From Patescibacteria group bacterium (GTDB lineage: Bacteria > Patescibacteriota > Patescibacteriia > 2-12-FULL-57-11): 64,000 nt of DNA. Below, piece by piece: positions 1 through 28,071 of this stretch (positions within the stretch are counted from its first letter, which is position 1; each line of letters begins with the position of its first letter). Where the stretch lies: assembly GCA_004297205.1 (NCBI GenBank), contig SCUL01000002.1, forward strand, positions 530,893 to 594,892, given 5' to 3'. The position numbers and the translations under genes were made by a program. Under the pieces are notes generated by a model. The model was given only the letters and a program-made list of their open reading frames with translations. It had not been told where the DNA came from and made no database searches.

Positions 1-547
1 GAATCTTGAACTTGTCCAGGTCGACCCACAGCAGCCCGAGCGGCTTGCGGTCGCCGAGCGCGCGGTTCACTTCCCCGCGCAGCGCCGCGTCGAAGGCCCG
101 GCGGTTGCCGAGCCCGGTCAGCGGGTCCGCGTAGATCTTCTGGACGTACTTGGTGACGTCCCGGACCGTTCCGAGGTAGCCGGCGAGCCGCTTCCGGTCG
201 TCGACCACGCGCTGGACGTTCAGGGAGACGGCGAGGCGCATCCCGTCCGGACGCACCACGTAGGTCTCGTAGTCATCGAGCTCGCCGTGCTTCTCCAGCA
301 TCGCCGGGATCGTCCGGCGGTCCGGATCGCCCCTGCGGTTCGAAAAGAGCCGCAGCACGTTCTTTCCCTTCAGCTCTCCCTCCGGGAGGCCGAACAGCTT
401 CGACACCGCCGGATTCAGCACCTGGATGCGCGCTTTCGCGTCCGTGAAAATCTGCGCATCCGGGCTCTGCATCCAGAGCAGCTCATATACTTCCTGTAGC
501 TGAAGCACCGCAGCCTCCCCGGCACCCGTGAAACCACGGGGTGCCAT
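1..547 (-). CDS. PAS-domain diguanylate cyclase (GGDEF), C-terminus truncated by the window edge
   Basis: The minus-strand ORF starts at ATG 547-545 with GGAGGA about 10 nt upstream and runs off the window. The translation begins MAPRGFTGAGEAAVLQLQEVYELLWMQSPDAQIF (PAS-like) and continues to DPLTGLGNRRAFDAALRGEVNRALGDRKPLGLLWVDLDKFK, the start of a GGDEF domain. It is not in the ORF track because it has no in-window stop. Confidence 0.75.
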   Translation of the reverse strand, partial: MAPRGFTGAGEAAVLQLQEVYELLWMQSPDAQIFTDAKARIQVLNPAVSKLFGLPEGELKGKNVLRLFSNRRGDPDRRTIPAMLEKHGELDDYETYVVRPDGMRLAVSLNVQRVVDDRKRLAGYLGTVRDVTKYVQKIYADPLTGLGNRRAFDAALRGEVNRALGDRKPLGLLWVDLDKFKI

Positions 548-1569: not shown

Positions 1570-1644
1570 ACCGAAAAAAGGGTTAGAGAGTGAAGATAAC
1601 AATTCTTGATCTCTCCGCGCCGTCGCACGCGCGGTACACGCACT

Positions 1645-3852
1645 ATGCGCTTTGTACCGTTTGTCGTTGCGGCGGCGTTTCTGCTCTTCGCCCCCGCGCT
1701 CGCCCGCGCCGCCTCCACGGTCGTTATTACGCGCGTCGCCGCCTACGAGGCGTCCGACCATGAATGGATCGAAATCAAAAACACGGGCGATGCGCCATTC
1801 GATCTCACCGGTTGGAAGTTCTGGGAGGACAACGTGAACCACGGGCTGACCGCCTTCCGCGGTGGCATGACGCTCGCACCCGGCGAGAGTGCCGTCATCG
1901 CCGACGTGGCCGCAACCTATACCACCGACCATCCGGAGTGGAGCGGGATGATCCTCGATTCCAGCTGGACATCGCTCGCGCTTGACGGCGAACCGATCGG
2001 CCTGCGCGACTCGGCCGGAGAGCTCCATCAGTTTACGGATGTGGTCTGGTTGAGCGAGCCGCCCGGAACGGCGGCACCCGCGCCGACAGCGGATGCGCCT
2101 CCAACATCGAGCGCGCCCGCCCCGCAGGGCGGCGAGCTCCTCCTCTCCGAAGTGCTCCCCGCGCCTACCGACGGCGGCGAATGGATCGAAGTGCAGAATG
2201 TCGCGAGTTCGACGATCCGTCTCGACGGCCAGGAGCTGCATGACGCGGTCGGCCGCATCGCGGTGCTGACCGGCGATCTCGCTCCCGGCGCGTACCTGCA
2301 GATCAGCCTGACCTCTGCGAAGCTCAACAACTCCGGCGACACGGTCACATTGCGTTCGGTCTCCGCGGTGCTCGACGAAGTCCGCTACGGCGACGACCTG
2401 CTTCCGGCTCCGGAATCGGGCATCGCGCTGGCCCGCGACGGTGCCGCCTGGACGCTGACCATGAGCGCGACGCCCGGCGCAGCCAACCGCATCACCGCGC
2501 TGCCGAGCGCGCCCAAGAAATCCGCGCCGGCGCGGGTTGGACCAGACACGACGCTGCATCCCGGAAGCATCCTCATCAATGAAATCGCGCCGCGCGAGGA
2601 AGACGGTGACGACTGGATCGAATTCGCCAACCGCACCGACCGCCGCCTCGACCTGCGCGGCTGGAAACTGCTCGTCGGCGCGGACGCAGAAATTCCGCTC
2701 TTCGGAAAAATCAGCGCGGGAAGCCGGATGCTGGTGCGCCTCGGCGGCGACCCGCTGCCAGACAAAGCGCTGCTCTTGCTTGCGGCCGCCGACGGCAGCA
2801 CGCAAGACCAGGTGACGTACGGCCCCTATAGCGACGGAAACGACGCCGACAACGCGCCCGCTCCTGAACTCGGAAAAACGGTTGCTCGTCACGAAGGGCA
2901 GAACACCGAAAGCGACGCGGAGGACTTCTATCTCCCGCGCGCGGCGACGCCCGGCAAGCAGAACATTGCGCCAGAAGATGAAGGGGAGGAGACCATGGTC
3001 ACGACGCGCGCGATCATCATTCCGAGCTGCATCCTCCCAGAAGAAAACGTCGCGGAAACCACGACCGTGCGCGCTGCAACAACTGCCACGCCAAAAAAGA
3101 CCGTCGCGAAAACAAAGACCGTTGCAAAAAAGAAGGGCAGCGCTCCGGCACCCCGATCCGCGTTGCTTGCGGAGATCGGCGAACTCCCGGACAAGTCCAA
3201 AGTGCGCGTCACCGCGACCGTCGTGGGTGCGCCGCCGGCGAGCAGCGGCCGCATCTGGTTCCTCGGTGACGGAGATGCCGGTGCCAAACTCCAGCTGACG
3301 GGAAAACCGCTCATGCTCGCCGCGGGAGAGCGCATCCGTCTCACCGCGACGACCGACTGGACGACCGGTCCGCTCCTGCGCGCGGCATCCGCCGCCGTGG
3401 AACGCATCGGCTCCGCAACCGCCACCGTTCCCGTCACACGCGGGCTGGCGGAGCTCACTTCAGACGACGGGCATCGCCTCGTCGCGGTCCGCGGAGAAGC
3501 CGTGAGCCGGCGTGGCGACGCGGTGACCATCGAAGACGGGACCGGGCGATTGAACATGACCTTGCCGCAAGGCGTTCCCGGACAGACCGGCGATACGTTC
3601 GACGCAACCGGCATCTACTTGGTCGGCGACCCGGGACGGCTGCTCGTCCTCACCACATCTTCTGCGGCAGTGAGCCGTCCCGCGGCTGCCATCCCTGGCC
3701 GTACCGCCTCGGGCGCGTCCGGCCCATCAAGCCGCGACTCTCCGTGGCCGCTCGTCGGCGCGGCAGCGTTGCTCGGCGCCGGAACGCTGCTCCTCGTCCG
3801 CCGTCCGTCGACCGGTGCCAAAGAAACGTCACTCATGCTTGATCACTCGTAA
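1645..3852 (+). CDS. secreted, membrane-anchored surface protein with three lamin-tail domains (LTD)
   Basis: Signal peptide MRFVPFVVAAAFLLFAPALARA. Three LTD signatures are present: EWIEIKNTGDAPFDLTGWKF, EWIEVQNVASSTIRLDGQEL and DWIEFANRTDRRLDLRGWKL. A C-terminal TM anchor (AAALLGAGTLLLVRR) follows. Start chosen at ATG 1645; the track start 1606 is TTG. GGTACAC lies just upstream of the ATG. Confidence 0.7.
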   Translation: MRFVPFVVAAAFLLFAPALARAASTVVITRVAAYEASDHEWIEIKNTGDAPFDLTGWKFWEDNVNHGLTAFRGGMTLAPGESAVIADVAATYTTDHPEWSGMILDSSWTSLALDGEPIGLRDSAGELHQFTDVVWLSEPPGTAAPAPTADAPPTSSAPAPQGGELLLSEVLPAPTDGGEWIEVQNVASSTIRLDGQELHDAVGRIAVLTGDLAPGAYLQISLTSAKLNNSGDTVTLRSVSAVLDEVRYGDDLLPAPESGIALARDGAAWTLTMSATPGAANRITALPSAPKKSAPARVGPDTTLHPGSILINEIAPREEDGDDWIEFANRTDRRLDLRGWKLLVGADAEIPLFGKISAGSRMLVRLGGDPLPDKALLLLAAADGSTQDQVTYGPYSDGNDADNAPAPELGKTVARHEGQNTESDAEDFYLPRAATPGKQNIAPEDEGEETMVTTRAIIIPSCILPEENVAETTTVRAATTATPKKTVAKTKTVAKKKGSAPAPRSALLAEIGELPDKSKVRVTATVVGAPPASSGRIWFLGDGDAGAKLQLTGKPLMLAAGERIRLTATTDWTTGPLLRAASAAVERIGSATATVPVTRGLAELTSDDGHRLVAVRGEAVSRRGDAVTIEDGTGRLNMTLPQGVPGQTGDTFDATGIYLVGDPGRLLVLTTSSAAVSRPAAAIPGRTASGASGPSSRDSPWPLVGAAALLGAGTLLLVRRPSTGAKETSLMLDHS

Positions 3853-13426: not shown

Positions 13427-14575
13427 ATGTTCCGTAAAACACTTTTGCTCACGCTGGTCGGCACGCTGCTGCCGATGAGCGCGCTCGCCGCCACCTTCGC
13501 GGGCGGAGAAACCTACGCCCTCGGCTCGGGCATGCGGATCGACGGCGACTTGTACGCAGCCGGCGCGAGCGTTTCGGTCGGCGGCAACGTGACCGGCGAC
13601 CTGTACGCCGCGGGCGGCAGCGTCACCGTGACCGGCGCAGTCGGTCAGGACGTGGTCGTGGCCGGCGGCAATCTCACCTTGCTCGGCTCCGTCGGGGACG
13701 ACGTACGCGTCGCCGGCGGCCAGATAGCGATCGGCGACCGCATCGGCGGCGACCTGGTCGTGGCCGGCGGCATGGTGCATCTGCTCCCCGGCTCGGAAGT
13801 GGGCGGGGACCTGATCATCGCCGCGGGACAGGCCGTCGTCGAAGGCACCGTCAAAGGCAAACTCATCCTGCGCGGCGGCGCGGCGGTTCTGAACGGCGCG
13901 CTCACCGGTCCTGCAGACGTGGAGGTCGAGGAAACGCTGTCTATCGGAGACGCCGCGCGCTTTGGAAGCGCACTCGTCTACCGCGCGTCCCAGGAAGCAA
14001 GCGTCGCGGCCGGCGCCGTGCTCGGCGAAGTGCGCCGCGAACCGCTGCCCGAACGCATGCGCCCGGAAAAGATCGACGGCGGAGCCCTCGTGGGCCTCGC
14101 GGGTCTCATCGCCTTCGGCAAGCTCCTGGCCGCTCTCGGCGCAGCGCTCGTCGCCGTCTGGCTCTTCCGCAAAGGTACGCAGCAGCTCGTGACCGACGCG
14201 GTCGGCGACTTCTGGCCGATGCTCGGTCGCGGCTTCGCCACCGGCATCCTGATGCCGATCGCCGCCTTCCTACTGCTCATCACCGTCATCCTGTCGCCGA
14301 TCGGCGCGCTCACGGGCGCGGCCTTCGCGCTGCTCCTCGTCGCCGCGAAGATCCTCTCGGGCATCCTGTTCGGCGCCTGGCTCATCATGGCCGTGAAGAA
14401 GCAGAAGAAACCCGAAGCCACCTGGCAGGCCGCGCTTCTGGGCACCTTCCTCCTCCATCTCCTGTGGCTGATCCCGCTTCTCGGCTGGATCATTGCCGGC
14501 ATCTTCTGCACCGTCGCCTTCGGCGCGCTGGCCATCTGGGCCCGCGGCATTCTGAAGCCCCTGGCAAGCTCCTGA
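13427..14575 (+). CDS. secreted protein with bactofilin-like beta-helical repeats and a C-terminal multi-TM domain
   Basis: A signal peptide is followed by 8-9 tandem GDL(Y/V)AAGG-V-V-G-V repeats, then four hydrophobic helices. Confidence 0.6.
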   Translation: MFRKTLLLTLVGTLLPMSALAATFAGGETYALGSGMRIDGDLYAAGASVSVGGNVTGDLYAAGGSVTVTGAVGQDVVVAGGNLTLLGSVGDDVRVAGGQIAIGDRIGGDLVVAGGMVHLLPGSEVGGDLIIAAGQAVVEGTVKGKLILRGGAAVLNGALTGPADVEVEETLSIGDAARFGSALVYRASQEASVAAGAVLGEVRREPLPERMRPEKIDGGALVGLAGLIAFGKLLAALGAALVAVWLFRKGTQQLVTDAVGDFWPMLGRGFATGILMPIAAFLLLITVILSPIGALTGAAFALLLVAAKILSGILFGAWLIMAVKKQKKPEATWQAALLGTFLLHLLWLIPLLGWIIAGIFCTVAFGALAIWARGILKPLASS

Positions 14576-15544: not shown

Positions 15545-16960
15545 ATGATCGGCTCTTTCTTCCGCCGCACCACCGCACTCGCCGCCATCGCCGCAGTCGT
15601 CCTTTCGGGCGTCGGCTGCACGCGCGGCGTCCCCGCCGACGTCGTTGAAGCGACGCGGCCGTTCACGCTCCAATTCTGGGGCGTGTTCGACGACTCCGAC
15701 GCCTTCGAACAGACCATCGCCCGCTACCGCGCGCTGCGCCCCCACATCACGGTCGAGTACCGCAAGCTGCGTCCGGAGGAATACGAGCGCGAGCTGATCA
15801 ACGCGCTGGCAGAAGACAAGGGGCCGGACATCTTCATGGTGCACAACACCCAGGTGGCCGAATACCAATCGAAGCTGCTCCCGCTCCCCGCATCGCTGAC
15901 CCTGCCCGTCCGCGAACAGCAGGGCACCATCCAAAAACAGGTCGTGACCGTGCTGCGCCAGGTGCCGTCGCTCTCCATCCGCCAGCTCCAGAGCCAGTTC
16001 GTGGACGTGGTAGCCGAGGACGTGGTGCTGCCGCGCGAAGAAACCACGACCGGCGGCGGCCGCCAGACCGTGAACCGCATCTACGGCCTGCCGCTCTCCG
16101 TGGACACGCTGGCGCTCTACTTCAACAAGACGCTCTTGAACCAGGCCGGCATTCCGGAGGCGCCGCGTTCCTGGGGCGAAGTACAGGCCGCCGCGCGCAA
16201 CAAGCGGCTGACCGTCTACGACGCCAGCCAGCGCATCACCCAGAGCGCCATTGCCATGGGCACGGCCGGAAACGTGGAGCGCGCCGTGGACGTGCTGCAG
16301 CTCCTGATGATGCAAAACCGCACCACCATGGCCGACGACGAGGGCACCGTTTCGTTCAACCGCCGCCCGGCCTCGGCCGTGGGCGAACTCAACCCCGGCG
16401 CCGAAGCATCCGTCTTCTATACCGACTTCGCCAACCCGGTGAAGGAGGTCTACACCTGGAACGACACCATGCCGAGCTCGCTCGAGGCCTTCGCCGGCGG
16501 ACGCACCGCCATGTTCCTGGGCTACTCCTACCACCTGGCCACCATCCGCGCCCGCGCGCCCAAGCTCGAAGTCGGCATCGCCCCGATCCCCCAGATCGGC
16601 GACGAGATCAACTTCGCCAACTACTGGGTGAACGGCGTCTCCACCAAGTCCGAACACGCGGACGAGGCCTGGGACTTCGTGCAGTTCATGGCCGCACAGG
16701 ACCAGGCCAAGACGTATCTGGACGCCACCAAGCGCCCGACGGCGCTGCGCGCGCTCGTCGGCGCGCAGCGGGAAGACCTCGATATCGGCGTGTTCGCGGC
16801 CCAGGCGCTGACCGCCAAGAGCTGGTACAAAGGGCATGACGCCGCGGCCATGGAAACAGCCTTCAAGGACCTGATCCGCGACGTCCTCGCCAACCCCTCC
16901 AATCCGCAGCAGTGGGTGGAAATCGCCGCCCAGAAAGTCGCCCAAACCTACAGCTTCTAA
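15545..16960 (+). CDS. ABC-transporter extracellular solute-binding lipoprotein (family 1, sugar-binding-like)
   Basis: Lipobox LSGVGC and an SBP_bac_1-like profile. The start is ATG 15545 (MIGSFFRR), 7 nt after TACACG. The first pilin gene follows 3 nt after the stop. Confidence 0.75.
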   Translation: MIGSFFRRTTALAAIAAVVLSGVGCTRGVPADVVEATRPFTLQFWGVFDDSDAFEQTIARYRALRPHITVEYRKLRPEEYERELINALAEDKGPDIFMVHNTQVAEYQSKLLPLPASLTLPVREQQGTIQKQVVTVLRQVPSLSIRQLQSQFVDVVAEDVVLPREETTTGGGRQTVNRIYGLPLSVDTLALYFNKTLLNQAGIPEAPRSWGEVQAAARNKRLTVYDASQRITQSAIAMGTAGNVERAVDVLQLLMMQNRTTMADDEGTVSFNRRPASAVGELNPGAEASVFYTDFANPVKEVYTWNDTMPSSLEAFAGGRTAMFLGYSYHLATIRARAPKLEVGIAPIPQIGDEINFANYWVNGVSTKSEHADEAWDFVQFMAAQDQAKTYLDATKRPTALRALVGAQREDLDIGVFAAQALTAKSWYKGHDAAAMETAFKDLIRDVLANPSNPQQWVEIAAQKVAQTYSF

Positions 16961-16963
16961 ACT

Positions 16964-17779
16964 ATGCGCCGCCCCGCTCTCCTCGTCCTGCCGCTTCTCG
17001 TCGCCACCGGTTTCTTTGCGGCGCAACCGGCATTCGCACAGCTGCCGACGCTGGTTCCCGAGGCCTGCCGCGGCACGGCGGAGCTCGAGGAATGCGGCCT
17101 GAACGAAGCCGTGCAAGTATTCATCAACGTCGCCCAGTTCATCTTCGGCATTTCCGGCGCGGTGGCGCTCCTCATGTTCGTCTGGGGCGGCTTCTTGTGG
17201 CTGACCTCGGCCGGCAGTGCGGAAAAAGTGAAACAAGGACAGGCCGTGATCACCGGCGCCGTCATCGGCCTGCTCATCATCTTCGGGGCCTACGTCGGCG
17301 TGCAGTTCGTCGTCGGGGCGCTGCGCGGCACGGTCGCGCCGGGCGAGGTGATGATTCCGGGCGAGCGCTGCGGCAGCGGCGAGGCAGCAGGGCTCGCCGT
17401 CTATACCGGACGGGAAACCACGACGTCGACCGGCGGCCTGGAGTGCATTACGGATTGCGGGTCGCTCTCCGACCTGGGCTACGGACGGGAGGACCTCCGC
17501 GAAATCTCCGCGGCCGACTATGAATGCATCGACGGTCTGTTCCCGGACGAGGAAGAACCCATCAAATGCTGCCGGGCGCGCGCCGGCGGGTCCGGGTCCA
17601 CGGGAACCGGCGAAGGCCCGTCCTCGCCGCCCGAGGGCACCAGCGGCCGCAACAACTGCCGCTGTGCCAACACGACGGTTTCGGCACAAAGCACCTGCGC
17701 CCTGTGCGCCGCCTTCTGCGAATCGCGCGACAGCACCCTGTCCCAGTTCAACGGCGAACCGCTCACCCGTTGCCCCTGA
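16964..17779 (+). CDS. TrbC/VirB2-like pilin domain (N-terminal) fused to a C-terminal Cys-rich domain
   Basis: A signal peptide is followed by the pilin core FIFGISGAVALLMFVWGGFLWLTSAGSAEKVKQGQAVITGAVIGLLIIFGAY. The C-terminal region has about 12 cysteines (ECITDC, KCCRARAGG, NNCRCANTT, CALCAAFC). Confidence 0.7.
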   Translation: MRRPALLVLPLLVATGFFAAQPAFAQLPTLVPEACRGTAELEECGLNEAVQVFINVAQFIFGISGAVALLMFVWGGFLWLTSAGSAEKVKQGQAVITGAVIGLLIIFGAYVGVQFVVGALRGTVAPGEVMIPGERCGSGEAAGLAVYTGRETTTSTGGLECITDCGSLSDLGYGREDLREISAADYECIDGLFPDEEEPIKCCRARAGGSGSTGTGEGPSSPPEGTSGRNNCRCANTTVSAQSTCALCAAFCESRDSTLSQFNGEPLTRCP

Positions 17780-17793
17780 GAGCCGCTCCGGAA

Positions 17794-17817
17794 CCCCCGC
17801 CTTGGCGGGGGTTTTTC
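17794..17817 (+). terminator. Rho-independent terminator followed by a TATACT promoter
   Basis: Hairpin cccccgc cttg gcggggg followed by tttttcgtt. TATACT at 17838-17843 lies 9 nt before ATG 17853. Confidence 0.55.
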
Positions 17818-17852
17818 GTTCCTTCCCGGAAATGCGCTATACTGGGAGCCAT

Positions 17853-18731
17853 ATGCGCCGCACTCTCCTTCTGCTCGCTGCACTCGCCGTCCTGATCGCC
17901 CCCGTGCTGGCGGTCCCTTCATCCGCGGCCGCGGCCGACATCTGGCGTTGCACCTCCTGTGAATGCAACTGTGACGGAACGCCCGACTTCGAAAGTGGCG
18001 GCATTCCGGATCCCTCCCCGTTCGATGGGACCGATCCGCAGGGGACGTGCGACCGCTTCTGCTCCGGCGCCGACGGGTGCGACCGCGACGTCCCCCGCGA
18101 AGCCGCACGTGCCGTGAGCTGCACCAACCTCGGCCCTGCGGGCGGCGGCGCGGCGACCGGTTCCTGCTGGTGCATCAACGATGCAGGCACCTGCAGCCAC
18201 AACGCCGGCGTGACTGAAGGCAACTGCCGCGACCTCGCCGCCGGACCCTGCCGCGGCCAGCGCGTGGTGCGCTTTGAAGTCGAATACGACTGCTCGGTGT
18301 GTCTCGCCTCAAGCGGCTCGGGCTGCACGGCCGGCGCAGGCAGCTGTTCGGAGGAAACCATCGCCCGCTGCGAAGCGGGTGCGGGCGGCGGGCTTTCCCC
18401 GTCCGCGCCGGGCACCGGTACGACCGGTGACGTCGTCGGTCCCGGGGGCGGCCGCGGCGCACCGGCACCGACGTTGCCGAACCCGCTCGGCGGCACCACC
18501 GACATCCGTACCATCATCGGCCGCGTCATCAACGCCGCGCTCGGCATTTCCGGTTCCATCGCGCTTTTGATGTTCATCTGGGGTGGAATGCTTTGGTTGA
18601 CGTCGGGGGGCAGTCCTGAGAGAATACAGAAAGGAAAAAATACGATTGTCTGGGCCGTCTTGGGGCTCGTCCTCATCTTCGGCTCCTACGCGATCCTGAA
18701 CTTCGTGCTCGGAGCGATCCTCAGCGCGTAA
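17853..18731 (+). CDS. Cys-rich secreted domain (N-terminal) fused to a C-terminal TrbC/VirB2-like pilin domain
   Basis: ATG 17853 gives MRRTLLLLAALAVLIAPVLA. The N-terminal domain has about 24 cysteines (CTSCECNCDG, CDRFCSGADGCD, CWCINDAGTC). A Gly-rich linker follows, then the pilin core ALGISGSIALLMFIWGGMLWLTSGGSPERIQKGKNTIVWAVLGLVLIFGSY. Confidence 0.7.
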   Translation: MRRTLLLLAALAVLIAPVLAVPSSAAAADIWRCTSCECNCDGTPDFESGGIPDPSPFDGTDPQGTCDRFCSGADGCDRDVPREAARAVSCTNLGPAGGGAATGSCWCINDAGTCSHNAGVTEGNCRDLAAGPCRGQRVVRFEVEYDCSVCLASSGSGCTAGAGSCSEETIARCEAGAGGGLSPSAPGTGTTGDVVGPGGGRGAPAPTLPNPLGGTTDIRTIIGRVINAALGISGSIALLMFIWGGMLWLTSGGSPERIQKGKNTIVWAVLGLVLIFGSYAILNFVLGAILSA

Positions 18732-18830
18732 AAGGGGACGCACTATCCGAAGCGCGGGCGTGCGACGATCCGAAAACATCGGAACGCCGCAGCACCCGCA
18801 CTTCACCAATGAAAGGGGGTGACAACCTGC

Positions 18831-19202
18831 ATGCAACACATCAAACGCTTCGCATCCGGCATCGTGCCGTTCCTGATGCTCTCGCTGCCGATGGCCGCTC
18901 AGGCGGCCGGCGTCAACCTGGGTCTCACGAGCGACGTCGAAGGCGCGCTCGGTCTCGGTACTCAAGACGTCCGCGTGACCATCGCCCGGATCATCAACGT
19001 GTTCATGGGGCTCCTCGGCATCATCGCCGTGGTGATCATCCTCTACGGTGGATTCATCTGGATGACCGCCGCCGGCAACGAGGAACGCGTCGACAAGGCC
19101 CGCAAGATGATCGTGGCCGGCGTCATCGGCCTGGCCATCATCCTCTCGGCCTACGCCATCGCCCGCTTCGTGGTCAACTCGCTGGTCAACGCCACGAGCT
19201 AA
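18831..19202 (+). CDS. TrbC/VirB2-like pilin paralog
   Basis: ATG 18831 is preceded by AAAGGGGG at 10 nt. Core FMGLLGIIAVVIILYGGFIWMTAAGNEERVDKARKMIVAGVIGLAIILSAY. Confidence 0.7.
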   Translation: MQHIKRFASGIVPFLMLSLPMAAQAAGVNLGLTSDVEGALGLGTQDVRVTIARIINVFMGLLGIIAVVIILYGGFIWMTAAGNEERVDKARKMIVAGVIGLAIILSAYAIARFVVNSLVNATS

Positions 19203-19221
19203 CACCCGAAACACGGAACGG

Positions 19222-19246
19222 CCTCCCCAAACGGGGGGTCGTTTTG
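19222..19246 (+). terminator. weak terminator plus extended -10 (TGGTATACT)
   Basis: Hairpin cctcccc aaac gggggg followed by tcgtttt. TGgTATACT at 19245-19253 precedes a 50-nt leader containing hairpin GGGCGA..TCGCCC. Confidence 0.4.
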
Positions 19247-19303
19247 GTATACTGGGGGTGTCTGAATTAGGGCGATCGCAAGGCTCGCCCCTACGCCACA
19301 TCC

Positions 19304-19732
19304 ATGACTATGGTGCACCGTGCGCTTATCCGTATTTTCGGGGCTTCGGCAGGCGCTTCGCTCGTGCTCTGGAGCAGCCGCGCCGCGCTGGCTTTTTCGG
19401 TCGAAGACACCGGCCTTAAAACCACCGCCGGAGAAGCCGGCATCCCGACGAGTGAAGCCTCGCTGCCGGTGCTTGTGGGCACCATCCTGAACGGCGTGTT
19501 GTCGCTCGTCGGCGTCGTCTTTCTCGTGCTCATCGTCTGGGGCGGCTTCCTCTGGATGACGGCCCGCGGCAACGACCAGCAGGTGGAGAAGGCCAAAAAC
19601 CTGATCACCTCGGCCGTCATCGGGCTCATCATCATCGCCGGCGGTTACGCCATCACCAACTTCGTCCTGACGCAGATCATCGCCGCGACGACCGGCGCGG
19701 GCGAGGCGCCAGCTCCGGCCGACGGCGGCTAG
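19304..19732 (+). CDS. TrbC/VirB2-like pilin paralog
   Basis: Core LSLVGVVFLVLIVWGGFLWMTARGNDQQVEKAKNLITSAVIGLIIIAGGY. Signal peptide and Ala/Pro-rich tail. Confidence 0.75.
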   Translation: MTMVHRALIRIFGASAGASLVLWSSRAALAFSVEDTGLKTTAGEAGIPTSEASLPVLVGTILNGVLSLVGVVFLVLIVWGGFLWMTARGNDQQVEKAKNLITSAVIGLIIIAGGYAITNFVLTQIIAATTGAGEAPAPADGG

Positions 19733-19736
19733 TCCT

Positions 19737-20171
19737 ATGCGCGCCTCTTTCCGCAGCATCGCCGCCGGAGCAGGTTTGGCTCTCGCGCTCTCGACCGCCG
19801 CGCTGCCCGCCTTTGCACAGGGACTCGGCGGCGCCCAGGGCGAACTGGAGAAAGCCGGAAAAAAAGCCTTCGGCGAACAGGTCGTCAATCGCCCGCTCGA
19901 AGTCGTGGCCGGCCAGATCATCAACGCGTTCCTGTCGCTCTTCGGCGTCCTGTTCCTGGCCCTGATGGTCTACGGCGGCTACCTCTGGATGAACGCCCGC
20001 GGCAACGAGCAGCAAGTGGAGAAAGCAAAAAGCCTGATTACCGCCGCGGTCATCGGGTTGGTCATCGCCTTAGCCGGCTACATCATCACGCGCTTCGTCG
20101 TGAGCGGCATCCTCACGGCAACAACCGGCGCGGGCGAAGCACCGGCTCCGGCCGAAGAATCCGCACCCTGA
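19737..20171 (+). CDS. TrbC/VirB2-like pilin paralog
   Basis: Core LSLFGVLFLALMVYGGYLWMNARGNEQQVEKAKSLITAAVIGLVIALAGY. Follows the previous gene after 4 nt. Confidence 0.75.
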   Translation: MRASFRSIAAGAGLALALSTAALPAFAQGLGGAQGELEKAGKKAFGEQVVNRPLEVVAGQIINAFLSLFGVLFLALMVYGGYLWMNARGNEQQVEKAKSLITAAVIGLVIALAGYIITRFVVSGILTATTGAGEAPAPAEESAP

Positions 20172-20172
20172 T

Positions 20173-20556
20173 ATGCACCGCTTCTTCACCGCCGCCGCCT
20201 CGGCCATATTCGGCATTGCCGCGCCGACGGTCGTCTTTGCGGCCAGCGCCCTGGAACGGCTGGACAAGGCCGCCAATGAAGCATTTCCCGGCCAGCGCGA
20301 GCGCCAGGCCCCGGAAGTCGCCGGTCAGGTCATCAACTTCTTCATCGGCGTCCTCGGCATCCTGTTCCTCGTGCTCATGGTCTACGGCGGCTACCTCTGG
20401 ATGAACGCCCGCGGCAACGAGCAGCAGGTGGATAAAGCCAAGAGCCTCATCACCCAGGCAGTGCTCGGACTGATCATCGTCCTCGCCGGCTACGCCATCA
20501 CCTACTTCGTTGTCACCAACCTCGTGAACGCCACCGGCGGCGTCACCACGCCCTGA
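20173..20556 (+). CDS. TrbC/VirB2-like pilin paralog
   Basis: Core IGVLGILFLVLMVYGGYLWMNARGNEQQVDKAKSLITQAVLGLIIVLAGY. Follows the previous gene after 1 nt. Confidence 0.75.
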   Translation: MHRFFTAAASAIFGIAAPTVVFAASALERLDKAANEAFPGQRERQAPEVAGQVINFFIGVLGILFLVLMVYGGYLWMNARGNEQQVDKAKSLITQAVLGLIIVLAGYAITYFVVTNLVNATGGVTTP

Positions 20557-20559
20557 CCT

Positions 20560-20961
20560 ATGACGCGCCTCCGCACCTACGCCCGCCGATTCGCTGCCGC
20601 CGCGCCTCTCGCTGCCGCCTCGTTCTTTCTGACGGCCAACGCCATGGCCGCGTCGGGGCTCATCAACAACCTGCAGGACACGGGCGAAGCCGGATTCGGC
20701 GTCCGGGAACCGCGCTCGCTGCCGGTCACCGTCGGACGCATCATCAACGTCTTTCTCGGCATCCTCGGCATCTTCGCCGTGGTCCTCATCATCTACGCCG
20801 GCTACCTCTGGATGAACGCCCGCGGCAACGAGCAGCAGGTGGAGAAGGCCCGCAGCATCCTGACGCAGGCCGTGATCGGATTGATCATCATCCTGGCCAG
20901 CTACTCGATCGCCGGCTTCGTCGTCCGGAACCTCGTGAACGCCACGACCGGCACCCGCTAG
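20560..20961 (+). CDS. TrbC/VirB2-like pilin paralog
   Basis: Core LGILGIFAVVLIIYAGYLWMNARGNEQQVEKARSILTQAVIGLIIILASY. Follows the previous gene after 3 nt. It is the last gene of the array. Confidence 0.75.
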   Translation: MTRLRTYARRFAAAAPLAAASFFLTANAMAASGLINNLQDTGEAGFGVREPRSLPVTVGRIINVFLGILGIFAVVLIIYAGYLWMNARGNEQQVEKARSILTQAVIGLIIILASYSIAGFVVRNLVNATTGTR

Positions 20962-20970
20962 TGAAACCAA

Positions 20971-20996
20971 AAGCCCCCTTGCGGGGGCTTTTTTGA
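20971..20996 (+). terminator. Rho-independent terminator closing the pilin operon
   Basis: Hairpin agccccc ttgc gggggct followed by tttttt. Confidence 0.65.
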
Positions 20997-26175: not shown

Positions 26176-28071
26176 ATGCCCAAAAACCCCAAAATCATAC
26201 TTGCCTCCGGTGCCGCCGTTTTTGTCGTCCTGGTCATGGCCTTGGCCGGCTGGAAATGGGCCCACGGCGCCTACAACGGCATTGATTTGGCGTATTTCTC
26301 CCAGGCCGTCTGGAACACGGCACATCTGCGGCCGTTCGCCTTCACCATCCACCCCGGGCTCACCCTCGGCGACCACGCCGAGTGGGTCCTCGTCCTCTTG
26401 GCGCTTCCCTACGCCGTACTGCCCCACCCCTTGCTGCTTGTCTTCATCCAAGCCGGGGCGCTGGCCGCCGGGGCGCTGGCCGTGCATCGAATAGCGGCGC
26501 GCCCACTCCCGTCCGGCTGGGCGCTTGGCGCGGCGCTGGGGTATTTGTTCCTGCCGACCATCGGCGGCGCGGCGTTGTTTGAATTCCACGCTTTGGCGCT
26601 GGCCGTACCGTTGCTGCTTTTTGCTGCCGACGCCTTTCTTGAAAAACGTTTCTTCCGGTTCCTGATCTTCCTCGCGGCGGCGCTGCTCGTCCGCGAAGAC
26701 GTGGCCCTGGTCGCGGCCATGTTCGGCATCATCGCGGCAATGGAACGCCGGCCGCTGCGCTGGATCCTGGCCCCGCTCGTGCTCTCCGCCGGCTGGTTCG
26801 TGGCGATGCTGCTCGTCATCAAGCAATTCTCGGTCGGCGGCGGTTTCAAGTTCTTCGCCTACTACGGTTGGCTGTGGCCGTTCGACCTCGGCGTCTTCGT
26901 CCGACATCTCCTGCGCCTGACGCAGCTCGAATTCCTGCTGGCGCTGCTCATGCCCGTCCTCTTCTTGCCGCTGCTGCGGCCGAAGTGGCTGCTGCTCTCG
27001 TTGCCGGGCTGGCTGCTGCTGGCACTCTCCTCCTCCGGCGCCGGTGCGGGATTGCTTGGCACGCATTACGCGCTCTTACTGATCCCGGGCTTCGTGCTGG
27101 CGACGCTCGACGGGCTCGCATGGGCACGGCAAGCCGTGCCCCTACAGCGAATATTGCCTGGGACGCATCGTGAACGCGTGATCGCGCTCGTACTTGCCAC
27201 GGCCGTCATCTTCTCTGCGGTCGCGCTCGGACCGTTCGTGCGCGGCGCCGTGATCGTCGCGACAAGCCCGAAGAACGCGGCTCTCCCGCAGGCGCTGGCC
27301 CTGGTCCCGCCCGAGGCTTCGGTCGCGGCGAGCGCGCGTTTCCTGCCGCATCTCGCGCAGCGCAGCGAGTTGTACGCGCTCCATTATCTCATGCTCGGCA
27401 CGACGCAATTCGCCGAAGCGCCATATGACGTGCCCGCGCCGGAATTCTTGCTGTATGACGAGTCGGACCTCCTGGCTTGGCACGCCAACTTCCCGACGCT
27501 CGGTTGGACGCGCGACCGCTATCGCCCCGGCTTTGCCCGGCTGCGCGCGCTCATCGACCGTGGCGGCTACGGCGTCGTCTTCCGCGACGGCGGCATGACC
27601 CTCTGGCAGCGCGGCGCGCCACGCCCGCAGCTCACGGGCGCACCTGAAGGAAAACGGGAAGGAGCGCCGGGCATCCGCATCGTGGCGCTGCGAGAGCCGT
27701 CCTTCTGTCCGGGACGCGCCGGCATCTGTCCCCTCTTGGTGTTCACCTCGGACGACGTACGCGGCGACGACCTTCTCCTGCGCTTCTACGAAAACAAAAC
27801 GGCGCCGCGGCTCATGACCTTCGGCGTCGTTCCGACCTTCTCGTGGGCGGCGAACATTCCGATCACCGTTCCTGTCACCGTGCTGTCACCGGACGTCTCC
27901 GGCCCTGTTTCTTTGGAACTTGTTTCCGCGGAAGGTGATTTGATACTGGACCCGTTGGGCACGGCCGCCGTCTCCTGGCGCGAGGTGCGCGCGCAGGGTC
28001 CAGCCGTCACGTTCACCCCTTCGCAGCTGCCCGCGCCTTCCGCCGCGCCCGCTCCCGACGCAAATCCATGA
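26176..28071 (+). CDS. DUF2079-family polytopic membrane protein (putative glycosyltransferase-like)
   Basis: 631-aa multi-TM protein with the YFSQAVWN...GDHAEW...FEFHALAL pattern. TACAAT lies 6 nt upstream of the ATG. The 3' end overlaps the convergent GT2 gene by about 59 nt. Confidence 0.6.
   Translation: MPKNPKIILASGAAVFVVLVMALAGWKWAHGAYNGIDLAYFSQAVWNTAHLRPFAFTIHPGLTLGDHAEWVLVLLALPYAVLPHPLLLVFIQAGALAAGALAVHRIAARPLPSGWALGAALGYLFLPTIGGAALFEFHALALAVPLLLFAADAFLEKRFFRFLIFLAAALLVREDVALVAAMFGIIAAMERRPLRWILAPLVLSAGWFVAMLLVIKQFSVGGGFKFFAYYGWLWPFDLGVFVRHLLRLTQLEFLLALLMPVLFLPLLRPKWLLLSLPGWLLLALSSSGAGAGLLGTHYALLLIPGFVLATLDGLAWARQAVPLQRILPGTHRERVIALVLATAVIFSAVALGPFVRGAVIVATSPKNAALPQALALVPPEASVAASARFLPHLAQRSELYALHYLMLGTTQFAEAPYDVPAPEFLLYDESDLLAWHANFPTLGWTRDRYRPGFARLRALIDRGGYGVVFRDGGMTLWQRGAPRPQLTGAPEGKREGAPGIRIVALREPSFCPGRAGICPLLVFTSDDVRGDDLLLRFYENKTAPRLMTFGVVPTFSWAANIPITVPVTVLSPDVSGPVSLELVSAEGDLILDPLGTAAVSWREVRAQGPAVTFTPSQLPAPSAAPAPDANP

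Follow-up and report, generated by a model that had tools for sequence, protein, structure and literature searches.

The window, that is, the whole 64-kb stretch of Patescibacteria DNA that was analysed, contains a tandem run of seven PF18895 (T4SS_pilin) genes between positions 16964 and 20961. In the first two, referred to here as A and B, a VirB2-like pilin core is joined to secreted domains rich in Cys; this fusion, reported in an initial annotation of the region, proved to be real, with PF18895 scoring above its cut-off in both proteins. The features of the locus are as follows.

15545 to 16960, + strand: SBP_bac_1-like gene (471 aa; Pfam SBP_bac_1, 9e-25, and SBP_bac_8), ending 3 nt ahead of A.
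16964 to 17779, + strand: protein A (271 aa), with signal peptide, N-terminal Cys pair, pilin core and two 6-Cys modules.
16964 to 17038, + strand: predicted Sec-type signal peptide of A, residues 1-25, with the cleavage site between AFA and QLP (hydrophobic window 4-25; AxA site read from the sequence).
17099 to 17323, + strand: pilin core of A, residues 46-120, a helical hairpin with the short basic loop SAGSAEKVKQGQ (PF18895, AF2, hydropathy).
17351 to 17578, + strand: Cys module 1 of A, residues 130-205 (C136, C161, C165, C188, C202, C203).
17579 to 17647, + strand: Gly/Ser/Pro linker of A, residues 206-228 (AF2 pLDDT <50 at 210-228).
17648 to 17776, + strand: Cys module 2 of A, residues 229-271 (C232, C234, C245, C248, C252, C270; AF2 pLDDT 87-94).
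17790 to 17820, + strand: intrinsic-terminator-like hairpin and T-run between A and B (-19.4 kcal/mol, z -2.4).
17838 to 17843, + strand: TATACT, a -10-like box 9 nt upstream of the ATG of B.
17853 to 18731, + strand: protein B (292 aa), with signal peptide, 18-Cys N-domain, Gly/Pro linker and C-terminal pilin core.
17934 to 18377, + strand: hypervariable Cys-rich N-domain of B, residues 28-175, 18 Cys.
18378 to 18488, + strand: Gly/Pro-rich linker of B, closing with the conserved PTLPNPLGG motif (entropy 2.9 bits; AF2 pLDDT <50 at 176-217).
18489 to 18728, + strand: pilin core of B, residues 213-292, more conserved than any other element of the locus (PF18895, 49.6 bits).
18819/18831 to 19202, 19304 to 19732, 19737 to 20171, 20173 to 20556 and 20560 to 20961, + strand: five plain pilin paralogues, all above the PF18895 cut-off.

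The hairpin between A and B is kept in four orthologous loci, with compensatory changes in one of them (L006), and the TATACT box is identical in 5/5 orthologous loci, suggesting that it may be a promoter element for B. Further terminator-like sites lie at 19222-19238 and 20975-20987. Both reading frames coincide with public gene calls for the Patescibacteria MAG (A, EPO33_04050, 271 aa; B, EPO33_04055, 292 aa). Since high-GC DNA gives long spurious ORFs, and that of B runs spuriously upstream to 17520, the Cys-rich segments might in principle be artefacts of a wrong frame, non-coding read-through or low complexity, an objection already anticipated in the initial annotation. Ahead of 17853, GC3 in the frame of B is 0.59, indicating that the upstream part of the longer ORF is non-coding. 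In the called frames GC3 is 0.80-0.83 and amino-acid entropy is normal (3.7-3.8 bits), the linker of B being the sole low-complexity part. The A modules moreover keep invariant Cys across 8-17 homologues, the frame of B is open in every orthologue despite turnover of its sequence, and the independent gene calls concur, leaving the artefact explanation with a negligible chance of being correct.

The pilin cores were assigned with Pfam HMMs. PF18895 (gathering cut-off 26.6 bits) matched residues 48-109 of A at 32.4 bits, residues 215-284 of B at 49.6 bits and the five plain paralogues at 31.5-41.4 bits; core identity to B within the run is 33-45%. Scores for PF04956 (TrbC/VirB2; cut-off 27.9 bits) were 21.4 bits for A and 23.5 bits for B, indicating a related yet sub-threshold match, and DUF575 gave a weak match within the core of B (Pfam, E up to 1). 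For NCBIfam NF045849 (cut-off 40) the plain pilin at 18819-19202 reached 40.8 bits, with A and B both under the cut-off (B core, 34 bits). AF2 placed helices at residues 46-81 and 86-120 of A and 218-250 and 262-291 of B, and hydropathy analysis gave, for both proteins, a signal peptide and two hydrophobic helices separated by a K/R-rich loop (SAGSAEKVKQGQ in A, SGGSPERIQKGKN in B); all five plain paralogues have the identical topology. The leaders end in AFA before Q and AAA before D and read as Sec-type; no prepilin-peptidase-type leader or type IV pilin-like N-terminus was seen on reading the sequences of A and B. Since a signal peptide is followed by two helices flanking a basic loop, both termini of A and B are predicted to lie outside the membrane, and the Cys-rich modules would consequently fold outside the cell. 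In agreement with the extracytoplasmic location proposed earlier, all Cys of A and B fall in predicted outside segments and none in membrane or cytoplasmic segments. The related pilin P0015 contains two PF18895 cores linked through one Cys-rich segment, an arrangement possible only if both core termini are on one side.

Protein A contains 14 Cys, of which C35 and C44 precede the core and exactly 12 lie within residues 136-270, where about 12 had been estimated. With a binomial P of 1.5e-10, its C-terminal part is enriched in Cys (8%, compared with 0.59% in the 39 other genes of the window). The family to which A belongs is conserved, with 60-72% identity over the full length and two 6-Cys modules; the modules are 45-70% identical, versus 74-87% for the core. 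Module 1, modelled by AF2 with pLDDT mostly of 74-88 that falls to 60 near residues 151-160, is retained with nearly invariant Cys columns down to homologues of ~30-40% identity. Module 2 is restricted to the close homologues P0003-P0009, its six Cys being invariant in seven aligned sequences. An EGF-like, knottin or metallothionein identity had been raised for the Cys-rich segments, and a profile search returned no such match: no EGF, knottin, metallothionein, zinc-finger or Kazal Pfam family matched A or B at E up to 1. Searching all PDB sequences with a profile of either module gave no relevant match at E up to 10, and fold searches with the A modules gave nothing significant.

A structural resemblance raised the possibility that module 2 is a Kazal-like protease inhibitor shielding the filament or cell surface against host proteases. 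Foldseek aligned ~43 residues to the ovomucoid third domain at 23-26% identity, and the spacing C-x10-C-x2-C...x17-C, together with a helix starting at the CxxC, is in our reading reminiscent of the Kazal pattern. The alignment, however, had an E of ~4 and a probability of 0.08, the module 2 profile matched no Kazal sequence in the PDB at E up to 10 and no Kazal family in Pfam, and the first two Cys of the module are one residue apart, unlike those of Kazal domains. We consider a Kazal-type inhibitor very improbable.

In protein B the Cys total 18, all within residues 33-173, rather than about 24 as first counted, the single error among the initial observations; the motifs quoted at the time (CTSCECNCDG, CDRFCSGADGCD and CWCINDAGTC) were all located in B, and the linker described as Gly-rich is so, and is also predicted to be disordered. 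The N-domain is 12% Cys against 0.59% in the 39 other window genes (binomial P 1.8e-18). An exhaustive phmmer search of 1.84 billion proteins detected no homologue of this domain beyond itself; P0036 and P0037, repeat proteins without the Cys pattern, were treated as spurious. Among positional orthologues of B the N-domain is only 24-28% identical, with indels, and contains 18, 12, 6, 12 and 8 Cys, always an even number. In the core behind it, identity reaches 92-94% between genomes in which the SBP shares 73-89%. dN was about tenfold higher in the N-domain (0.41-0.83) than in the core (0.01-0.07; omega 0.04-0.19). Since dS is likewise inflated in the N-domain, its divergence may stem from misalignment or cassette replacement instead of positive selection, which dN/dS did not demonstrate. 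AF2 modelling of B without an alignment gave a pLDDT of 52.8 and an uninterpretable N-domain model. The NPLG motif at the end of the linker directly follows the signal peptide in plain orthologues, for example in L008, L009 and L011.

The two proteins had initially been described as fusions of a pilin core and a Cys-rich domain in swapped order. The best local BLASTP alignment between their Cys-rich domains (E 0.022) was located in the linker, and the domains are regarded as unrelated, so that A and B are better described as two different, non-homologous modules on opposite termini of a shared core. Among related pilins some are extended N-terminally, some C-terminally and some on both sides, and one sub-module, G[WY]xC...LCPGG..N..CC, follows the core in the A family and in L011, L034 and L063 and precedes it in L042 and L043, where it corresponds to the C-terminal half of A module 1.

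Disulfide-stabilised modules, as first proposed, are consistent with the Cys counts of these extensions. Even counts were found in 155/162 Cys-containing extensions of pilins from related loci, both at the C-terminal side (93/98, p 4.5e-22) and at the N-terminal side (62/64, p 2e-16), although these statistics count related sequences from loci retrieved with A/B-like cores. Cys make up 7.1% of the extensions versus 0.03% of the cores, and two extra Cys occur together in P0014 and in P0016-18, a paired gain. On these grounds disulfide formation is probable, although DsbA- and VKOR-type genes were absent from the 64-kb window. The same Cys could instead bind metal in zinc-ribbon or metallothionein-like clusters without forming disulfides, as the CxxC and CxCxC spacings (CTSCECNC in B, CALC in A) might suggest. 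Such clusters are difficult to reconcile with the predicted extracytoplasmic location of the domains, with the arrival of extra Cys in pairs, and with counts of 6 and 10, which are among the commonest and are not multiples of 4. Histidines are few or absent in the modules, and metallothionein and zinc-finger Pfam families did not match at E up to 1; metal binding thus appears improbable.

In all, 107 related loci were retrieved from a metagenome scan with a five-sequence core alignment, a procedure that biases the sample toward arrays holding A/B-like genes. In this A/B-like-core sample the first gene is a Cys-extended pilin in 44 of the 52 arrays whose 5′ end is visible, and the Cys-extended fraction declines along the array, from 44/52 at position 1 to 25/52, 10/52 and 0/45 at positions 2, 3 and 4. 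The order seen in the window, C-extended, N-extended and then plain, was found again in nine arrays. The architecture had been called unusual, and this holds against classical VirB2 of ~100 aa but not within the sampled Patescibacteria arrays, from whose sequences a Cys-extended head pilin is judged to be a common architecture in Patescibacteria. A search of the literature found no description of Cys-rich or fused VirB2-like pilins in this group.

The survey also recovered proteins longer than 1785 aa that contain the pilin core (L018, L019 and L023), with TIG, Big_5 and DUF4215 domains behind it. Proteins of this size cannot be repeating subunits, so the core may anchor some family members. 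In a rival reading, the pilin-like hairpin of A and B might be a membrane anchor only, leaving both proteins unpolymerised with their Cys-rich ectodomains at the cell surface, perhaps complexed with the SBP-like protein. The resemblance of the giant proteins to anchored adhesins would be in keeping with this, as would the lack of assembly machinery: VirB4, VirB6 and other T4SS genes were not found in the 64-kb window, nor did ten large ORFs sampled from the flanks of related loci include any T4SS gene. Also in keeping with an anchor is the tight coupling of the SBP-like gene to the array, a homologue (35-89% identity) directly adjoining the leading pilin gene in 70 of the loci fetched. The SBP-like gene scores far under the cut-offs of the NCBIfam sugar-SBP equivalogs, and no ABC permease or ATPase lies near it in the window, its neighbours being GalU and the pilins. 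A simple anchor, however, would not be expected to be conserved as strongly as the core of B, which at 92-94% identity and an omega of 0.04-0.19 exceeds neighbouring housekeeping genes in conservation, and both A and B retain core residues that are invariant across the family. A and B also always occur in arrays alongside plain pilins, which lack any ectodomain that would need an anchor, and the counterpart arrays of Southlakia sit, according to the accessible text of PMC10633639, within an essential T4SS cluster. Taken together, these findings make a purely anchoring role conceivable but rather doubtful.

We favour, with a probability of roughly 0.55, the reading that A and B represent modular pilins of VirB2-like type (PF18895) with outward disulfide-bonded domains, acting as contact subunits of a filament. 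Both would be exported by their Sec-type signal peptides, after which the two-helix hairpin would insert with its short basic loop in the cytoplasm and both termini outside the membrane. The modules, C-terminal in A and N-terminal in B, would then fold extracellularly and be locked by disulfides. Classical conjugative pilins, such as TraA (F, pED208), VirB2 and TrbC (PF04956), share the helical hairpin and basic loop but have a mature length of ~65-100 aa and lack additional domains, unlike A and B with their Cys-rich modules. Head-to-tail cyclisation, known for some classical conjugative pilins, would be blocked by a terminal domain. Since conjugative pili expose both pilin termini on their outer face (PMC5018250), a module on either end of the pilin would be displayed at the same place, the filament surface, which would explain why both orientations exist. 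Because they precede the five plain pilins, A and B would most likely be low-abundance, first-assembled subunits, and they would probably serve as minor or tip adhesins that give a Patescibacteria T4SS-type filament a contact surface. Of the two modules, that of A would be conserved, whereas that of B would be specific to its lineage and diverge fast, on a core under extreme constraint.

Against this filament reading, a helical filament would offer little room for a 150-aa domain on each of its subunits.

Known Patescibacteria VirB2-like arrays comprise 2-11 genes encoding divergent paralogues (Quinonero-Coronel et al. 2025, PMC12102498), and Southlakia epibionticum requires its pilin array for epibiotic growth (Wang et al. 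2023, PMC10633639). As far as the accessible text of these papers goes, such arrays resemble that of the window in their tandem PF18895 pilins (seven here), signal peptide and two-helix core; their pilins are small, and Cys-rich ectodomains, a head-of-array position and an SBP-like partner are not mentioned. The window array also differs in not adjoining virB4 or virB6. The accessible part of the 2025 survey detected no adhesin for the Patescibacteria T4SS and no PrgB-like adhesins, and VirB5 is absent from Gram-positive T4SSs (PMC12857230). VirB5/CagL tip adhesins and PrgB adhesins, which mediate target contact at the surface or tip (PMC12857230), are proposed here as functional analogues of A and B, but are separate proteins rather than pilin fusions and have no sequence or fold relation to A or B. 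Tandem, divergent VirB2 paralogues are likewise found in Bartonella and Anaplasma, where antigenic variation or host range has been proposed (cited in the available portion of PMC12102498); variation there lies within the small pilin, whereas here it lies in the appended Cys-rich domain and the core is nearly invariant. The Mbov_0395-family pilin-like protein of Mycoplasma ICEs (NF045849), from wall-less/monoderm conjugation systems, shares the pilin-like core, but its model is limited to the 80 positions of that core and includes no module rich in Cys. A parallel in design principle is provided by the Streptococcus sanguinis type IV pilins PilB and PilC, in which a functional module joined to a polymerising pilin module makes an adhesin of a minor pilin (PMC8179133). 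These belong to the unrelated type 4 filament superfamily, in contrast to the Sec-type leaders of A and B, and the extra module of type IV pilins is C-terminal only, while Patescibacteria head pilins use either terminus.

A large part of bacterial diversity belongs to the Patescibacteria, and to our knowledge all cultivated members are attached to host cells. In the single species tested, both the T4SS and its pilin array proved essential. Modular pilin design was, as far as we know, previously known solely in the unrelated type IV pili; A and B suggest that VirB2-type pilins can be modular as well, at either terminus. Head pilins with outer modules are concrete candidates for the contact surface of the putative Patescibacteria filament. 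The conserved A and the hypervariable B, with its near-invariant core, could be targeted specifically with antibodies, pull-downs, deletions and structural studies, and the variable domain of B could be used as a sequence marker for host range. More speculatively, the SBP-like gene, the Cys-rich head pilins and the plain pilins might together encode a conserved Patescibacteria host-contact organelle, in which the head pilins would be the missing adhesin or tip of a monoderm T4SS-type filament, replacing VirB5/PrgB. The N-domains of B might set host specificity, the sugar-type SBP might link the filament to the capture of host-derived molecules, and stop or homopolymer switching in the linker of A might tune the displayed module; we put this broader proposal forward tentatively and think it unlikely in its entirety. 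The linker of A is interrupted in two orthologues, by an in-frame TGA in L004 and by a frameshift within G/C runs in L006. Recoding of TGA to glycine (code 25) was ruled out for L004, where TGA terminates three other genes.

Seven consecutive forward-strand genes (16964-20961) all scored above the PF18895 (T4SS_pilin) gathering cut-off of Pfam. The first two, A and B, carry Cys-rich domains in addition to the PF18895-type pilin hairpin (the core), and the remaining five are plain paralogues. The features at the head of this array are:

15545-16960, + strand: SBP_bac_1-like gene, directly 5′ of A and ending 3 nt before it
16964-17779, + strand: protein A, 271 aa, core at residues 48-109
17790-17820, + strand: conserved terminator hairpin of the intrinsic type, between A and B
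17853-18731, + strand: protein B, 292 aa, core at residues 215-284

Both genes are already public as hypothetical proteins (EPO33_04050 at NCBI is identical to A and EPO33_04055 to B) on an 855,898-bp contig of a Patescibacteria (CPR) metagenome-assembled genome; the G+C content of the window is 65%. An independent gene call also gave products of 271 and 292 aa. A longer ORF in the B frame starts at 17520, but its GC3 of 0.59 upstream of 17853, compared with 0.79-0.84 within genes, indicates that this extension is non-coding. On profile evidence A and B are assigned to PF18895; their PF04956 scores fell under threshold, and neither protein is a type IV pilin.

The initial annotation had described about 12 C-terminal cysteines in A and about 24 in B. 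The figure for A agrees with the 12 counted between residues 136 and 270, which with C35 and C44 before the core give 14 in all; that for B has to be lowered to 18, none of them outside residues 33-173. The Cys motifs quoted there were all found. Cysteine makes up 8% of the C-terminal part of A (P 1.5e-10) and 12% of the B N-domain, the Cys-rich part before its core (P 1.8e-18), compared with 0.59% in 39 other window genes. Frame error or low complexity, raised as possible objections, are not consistent with an in-frame GC3 of 0.80-0.83 and a normal amino-acid entropy of 3.7-3.8 bits in the Cys-rich segments, low complexity being confined to the Gly/Pro linker of B. Hydropathy gave all seven pilins, plain or extended, a common layout: a Sec-type signal peptide and two hydrophobic helices with a short K/R-rich loop between them. 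The positive-inside rule predicts a cytoplasmic position for this loop and an outside position for both termini, which places every cysteine of A and B in a predicted extracytoplasmic segment and removes the concern that they might be cytoplasmic. This predicted topology is equivalent to the arrangement in conjugative pilins, whose termini both lie on the outer face of the filament; a module on either terminus would accordingly be exported, fold in the oxidising exterior and be displayed outside.

A full-length query with A returned seven homologues that cover 90-100% of its length at 60-72% identity, as well as more distant, shorter ones of 189-201 aa. Alignment and sub-alignments gave the family order as a small N-terminal Cys pair, core, module 1, a Gly/Ser/Pro linker and module 2. 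Module 1 has six cysteines with an invariant CC at its end and is kept down to 30-40% identity; module 2, with six invariant cysteines (GRNNCxC...CxxCxxxC...C), is limited to close relatives, and a third module is present in homologues P0006, P0008 and P0009. In homologues P0014 and P0016-18, two extra cysteines co-occur at the same two alignment positions, which would be the signature of a gained disulfide. AF2 modelling of A from a 17-sequence alignment gave a mean pLDDT of 74.7, with a helical hairpin at residues 46-120, module 1 mostly at 74-88 with a dip to 60 near residues 151-160, the linker below 50 and module 2 at 87-94. A fold search with the whole model found generic helical hairpins only, and module 2 aligned non-significantly with a Kazal-like fold (E ~4, probability 0.08). 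Separate profile searches with modules 1 and 2 against all PDB sequences returned nothing relevant; consequently neither module was assigned to a known Cys-rich family, and no such family was matched by A or B.

Two related loci carry interrupted A orthologues. At L004 6001-6801 (protein P0010, on a contig shared with L007), a TGA replaces the GGG of the window in the Gly-rich linker and is followed by an intact, in-frame module 2 ending at the orthologous stop; TGA is also the normal stop of three other genes there. Either a recent nonsense mutation or a switch acting by read-through could explain this. At L006 4050-4330 the same linker, made of G7-G9 and C7 runs, is frame-shifted, with an intact module 2 in a different frame; the cause is either an error in the assembly or phase variation of module 2 through slipped-strand mispairing.

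For the B N-domain, a word-seeded search found only itself, and exhaustive phmmer against 1.84 billion representatives added just two repeat proteins that lack its Cys pattern. Positional orthologues of B were located on four related contigs sharing the order GalU, SBP, A, B, plain pilins.

Identity to the window on related contigs
GalU, four contigs: 79-85%
SBP, four contigs: 73-89%
A core, four contigs: 74-87%
A module 1, four contigs: 45-70%
A linker and module 2, two full-length orthologues: 50-56%
B core, four contigs: 92-94%
B N-domain, four contigs: 24-28%, with indels

The mature N-domains of B and these orthologues contain 18, 12, 6, 12 and 8 cysteines, always an even number; what persists among them is limited to CxCxC at the start and a DPxG...CxxxC stretch. 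Values of dN were 0.41-0.83 in the N-domain versus 0.01-0.07 in the core, and of omega 0.28-0.62 versus 0.04-0.19. Since dS is inflated in the N-domain as well, positive selection is inseparable there from cassette replacement or misalignment. In distant arrays the gene closest to B encodes a plain 111-138-aa pilin with an NPLG motif right after the signal peptide; the B N-domain therefore has the appearance of a segment inserted in a conserved pilin. The Cys-rich domains of A and B have no homology to each other. The domain swap originally proposed holds for position, on opposite termini, and not for content, the two modules being different. The fast turnover of the B module beside the conserved A fits the idea that B might offer a recognition surface that varies while that of A stays constant.

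Cys-extended pilins were then sought by scanning all ORFs with a core HMM in loci fetched with an A/B-like core, of which 22 came from GTDB species genomes and 80 were metagenomic; the sequences are mutually related and the start codons of N-extended genes are inferred. In this sample the Cys-extended architecture is common. Among 71 distinct matched metagenome pilins, 33 were extended (16 N-terminally, 11 C-terminally and 6 on both sides). In arrays of at least three genes with a visible 5′ boundary, retrieved with A/B-like cores, a Cys-extended pilin came first in 44/52 and at least one occurred anywhere in 46/52; the extended fraction at positions 1 to 4 was 44/52, 25/52, 10/52 and 0/45. 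The window order of C-extended, N-extended and plain genes recurred in nine arrays. Cysteine forms 7.1% of extensions versus 0.03% of cores. Its number was even in 93/98 Cys-containing C-terminal extensions (p 4.5e-22) and 62/64 N-terminal ones (p 2e-16), related sequences being counted, with 6 and 10 among the commonest. The C-terminal half of A module 1 (G[WY]xC...LCPGG..N..CC) follows the core in several pilins and precedes it in loci L042 and L043, and P0015 (Candidatus Uhrbacteria, 318 aa) links two PF18895 cores by a Cys-rich segment. Fusions at the N end, C end or both, core-module-core tandems and a sub-module on either side are all expected if a module on either terminus ends outside. 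Two or three tandem cores per protein, seen in P0015 and also at L024 4109, L055 2130 and L026 7009, would make each such protein a covalent dimer or trimer of pilins.

Their place at the start of the array, the size of the modules and the extremely strong constraint on the B core suggest that A and B are tip or minor subunits, assembled first and present in low copy, and do not make up the bulk of a filament. The analysis itself shows the domain architecture, the predicted topology, the Cys statistics, the pattern of conservation and the gene order of the arrays; from these we infer that A and B may form disulfides, enter a filament, occupy such a position in it and contribute to adhesion. 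The main rival explanation is that the hairpin is merely a membrane anchor for surface proteins, perhaps together with the SBP-like protein. It is favoured by the lack of assembly machinery in the window and sampled flanks: VirB4, VirB6 and other T4SS genes were not found in the 64 kb, nor T4SS matches among ten large ORFs sampled from the flanks of other loci. It is also supported by giant proteins (L018 and L019 4878-10235, L023 4602-9959) with a PF18895 core at the start and >1700 aa behind it, totalling >1785 aa with 69-72 Cys in ORFs that run off the locus; in L018 the domains behind the pilin core are TIG, Big_5, Big_7 and Cys-rich DUF4215 repeats, a composition that resembles an adhesin. 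A simple anchor, however, accounts poorly for the very strong constraint on the B core and for the plain pilins constantly alongside.

The SBP_bac_1-like gene seems to accompany the array as a conserved partner. Homologues of 35-89% identity adjoin the first pilin gene in 70 fetched loci of 33-71% G+C (for example L009 2778-4205 and L014 2331-3710); they are ~455-470 aa and weakly sugar-SBP-like, and no ABC permease or ATPase gene lies beside the window copy. A and B are separated (17790-17843 region) by the hairpin after A, which shows compensatory changes in L006, and by a TATACT box that is invariant and lies 9 nt 5′ of the B ATG, suggesting that B would be transcribed separately, as a leaderless or nearly leaderless mRNA.

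As far as the portions of the literature searched extend, Patescibacteria VirB2-like arrays comprise 2-11 genes, are essential in Southlakia and had no adhesin detected (PMC12102498, PMC10633639, PMC12857230); those portions contain no mention of Cys-rich fusions to VirB2-like pilins, and the A/B architecture appears undescribed there, though common in the sampled arrays. It resembles modular type IV pili pilins (PMC8179133) in design, and VirB5 or PrgB in proposed role. The plain pilin at 18819-19202 scored 40.8 bits (cut-off 40) and the B core (18489-18728) 34 bits against NF045849 (NCBIfam), the Mbov_0395-family pilin-like conjugal transfer protein of Mycoplasma ICEs, tying Patescibacteria pilins to conjugation systems of wall-less bacteria.

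Other window neighbours are of envelope or housekeeping type (SpoIID-domain protein, polysaccharide synthesis, Wzy, GalU, DUF2079, FtsK, RecA), with two large ORFs:

37457-41446, - strand: large ORF
41471-44740, - strand: large ORF

The DUF2079 membrane protein (26176-28071, +) lies a few kb 3′ of the array, and directly 3′ of it in distant locus L073 (5344-7275). A 382-aa protein (13427-14575, +), kept 5′ of GalU in L001 and L006 and matching nothing in Pfam or NCBIfam, has a repetitive Gly/Asp-rich N-terminal half, bactofilin-like by eye (GG.V.V.G.V.GD), and a multi-pass membrane C-terminus. The 486-aa product of 45796-47256 (+) has 14 Cys including CxxC pairs, a long Ala/Pro-rich tail, no signal peptide and no Pfam match; a cytoplasmic, metal-binding role with no relation to the pilins is probable. 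The 748-aa product of 1606-3852 (+), with three Lamin Tail Domain (LTD) repeats, is likely another surface protein.
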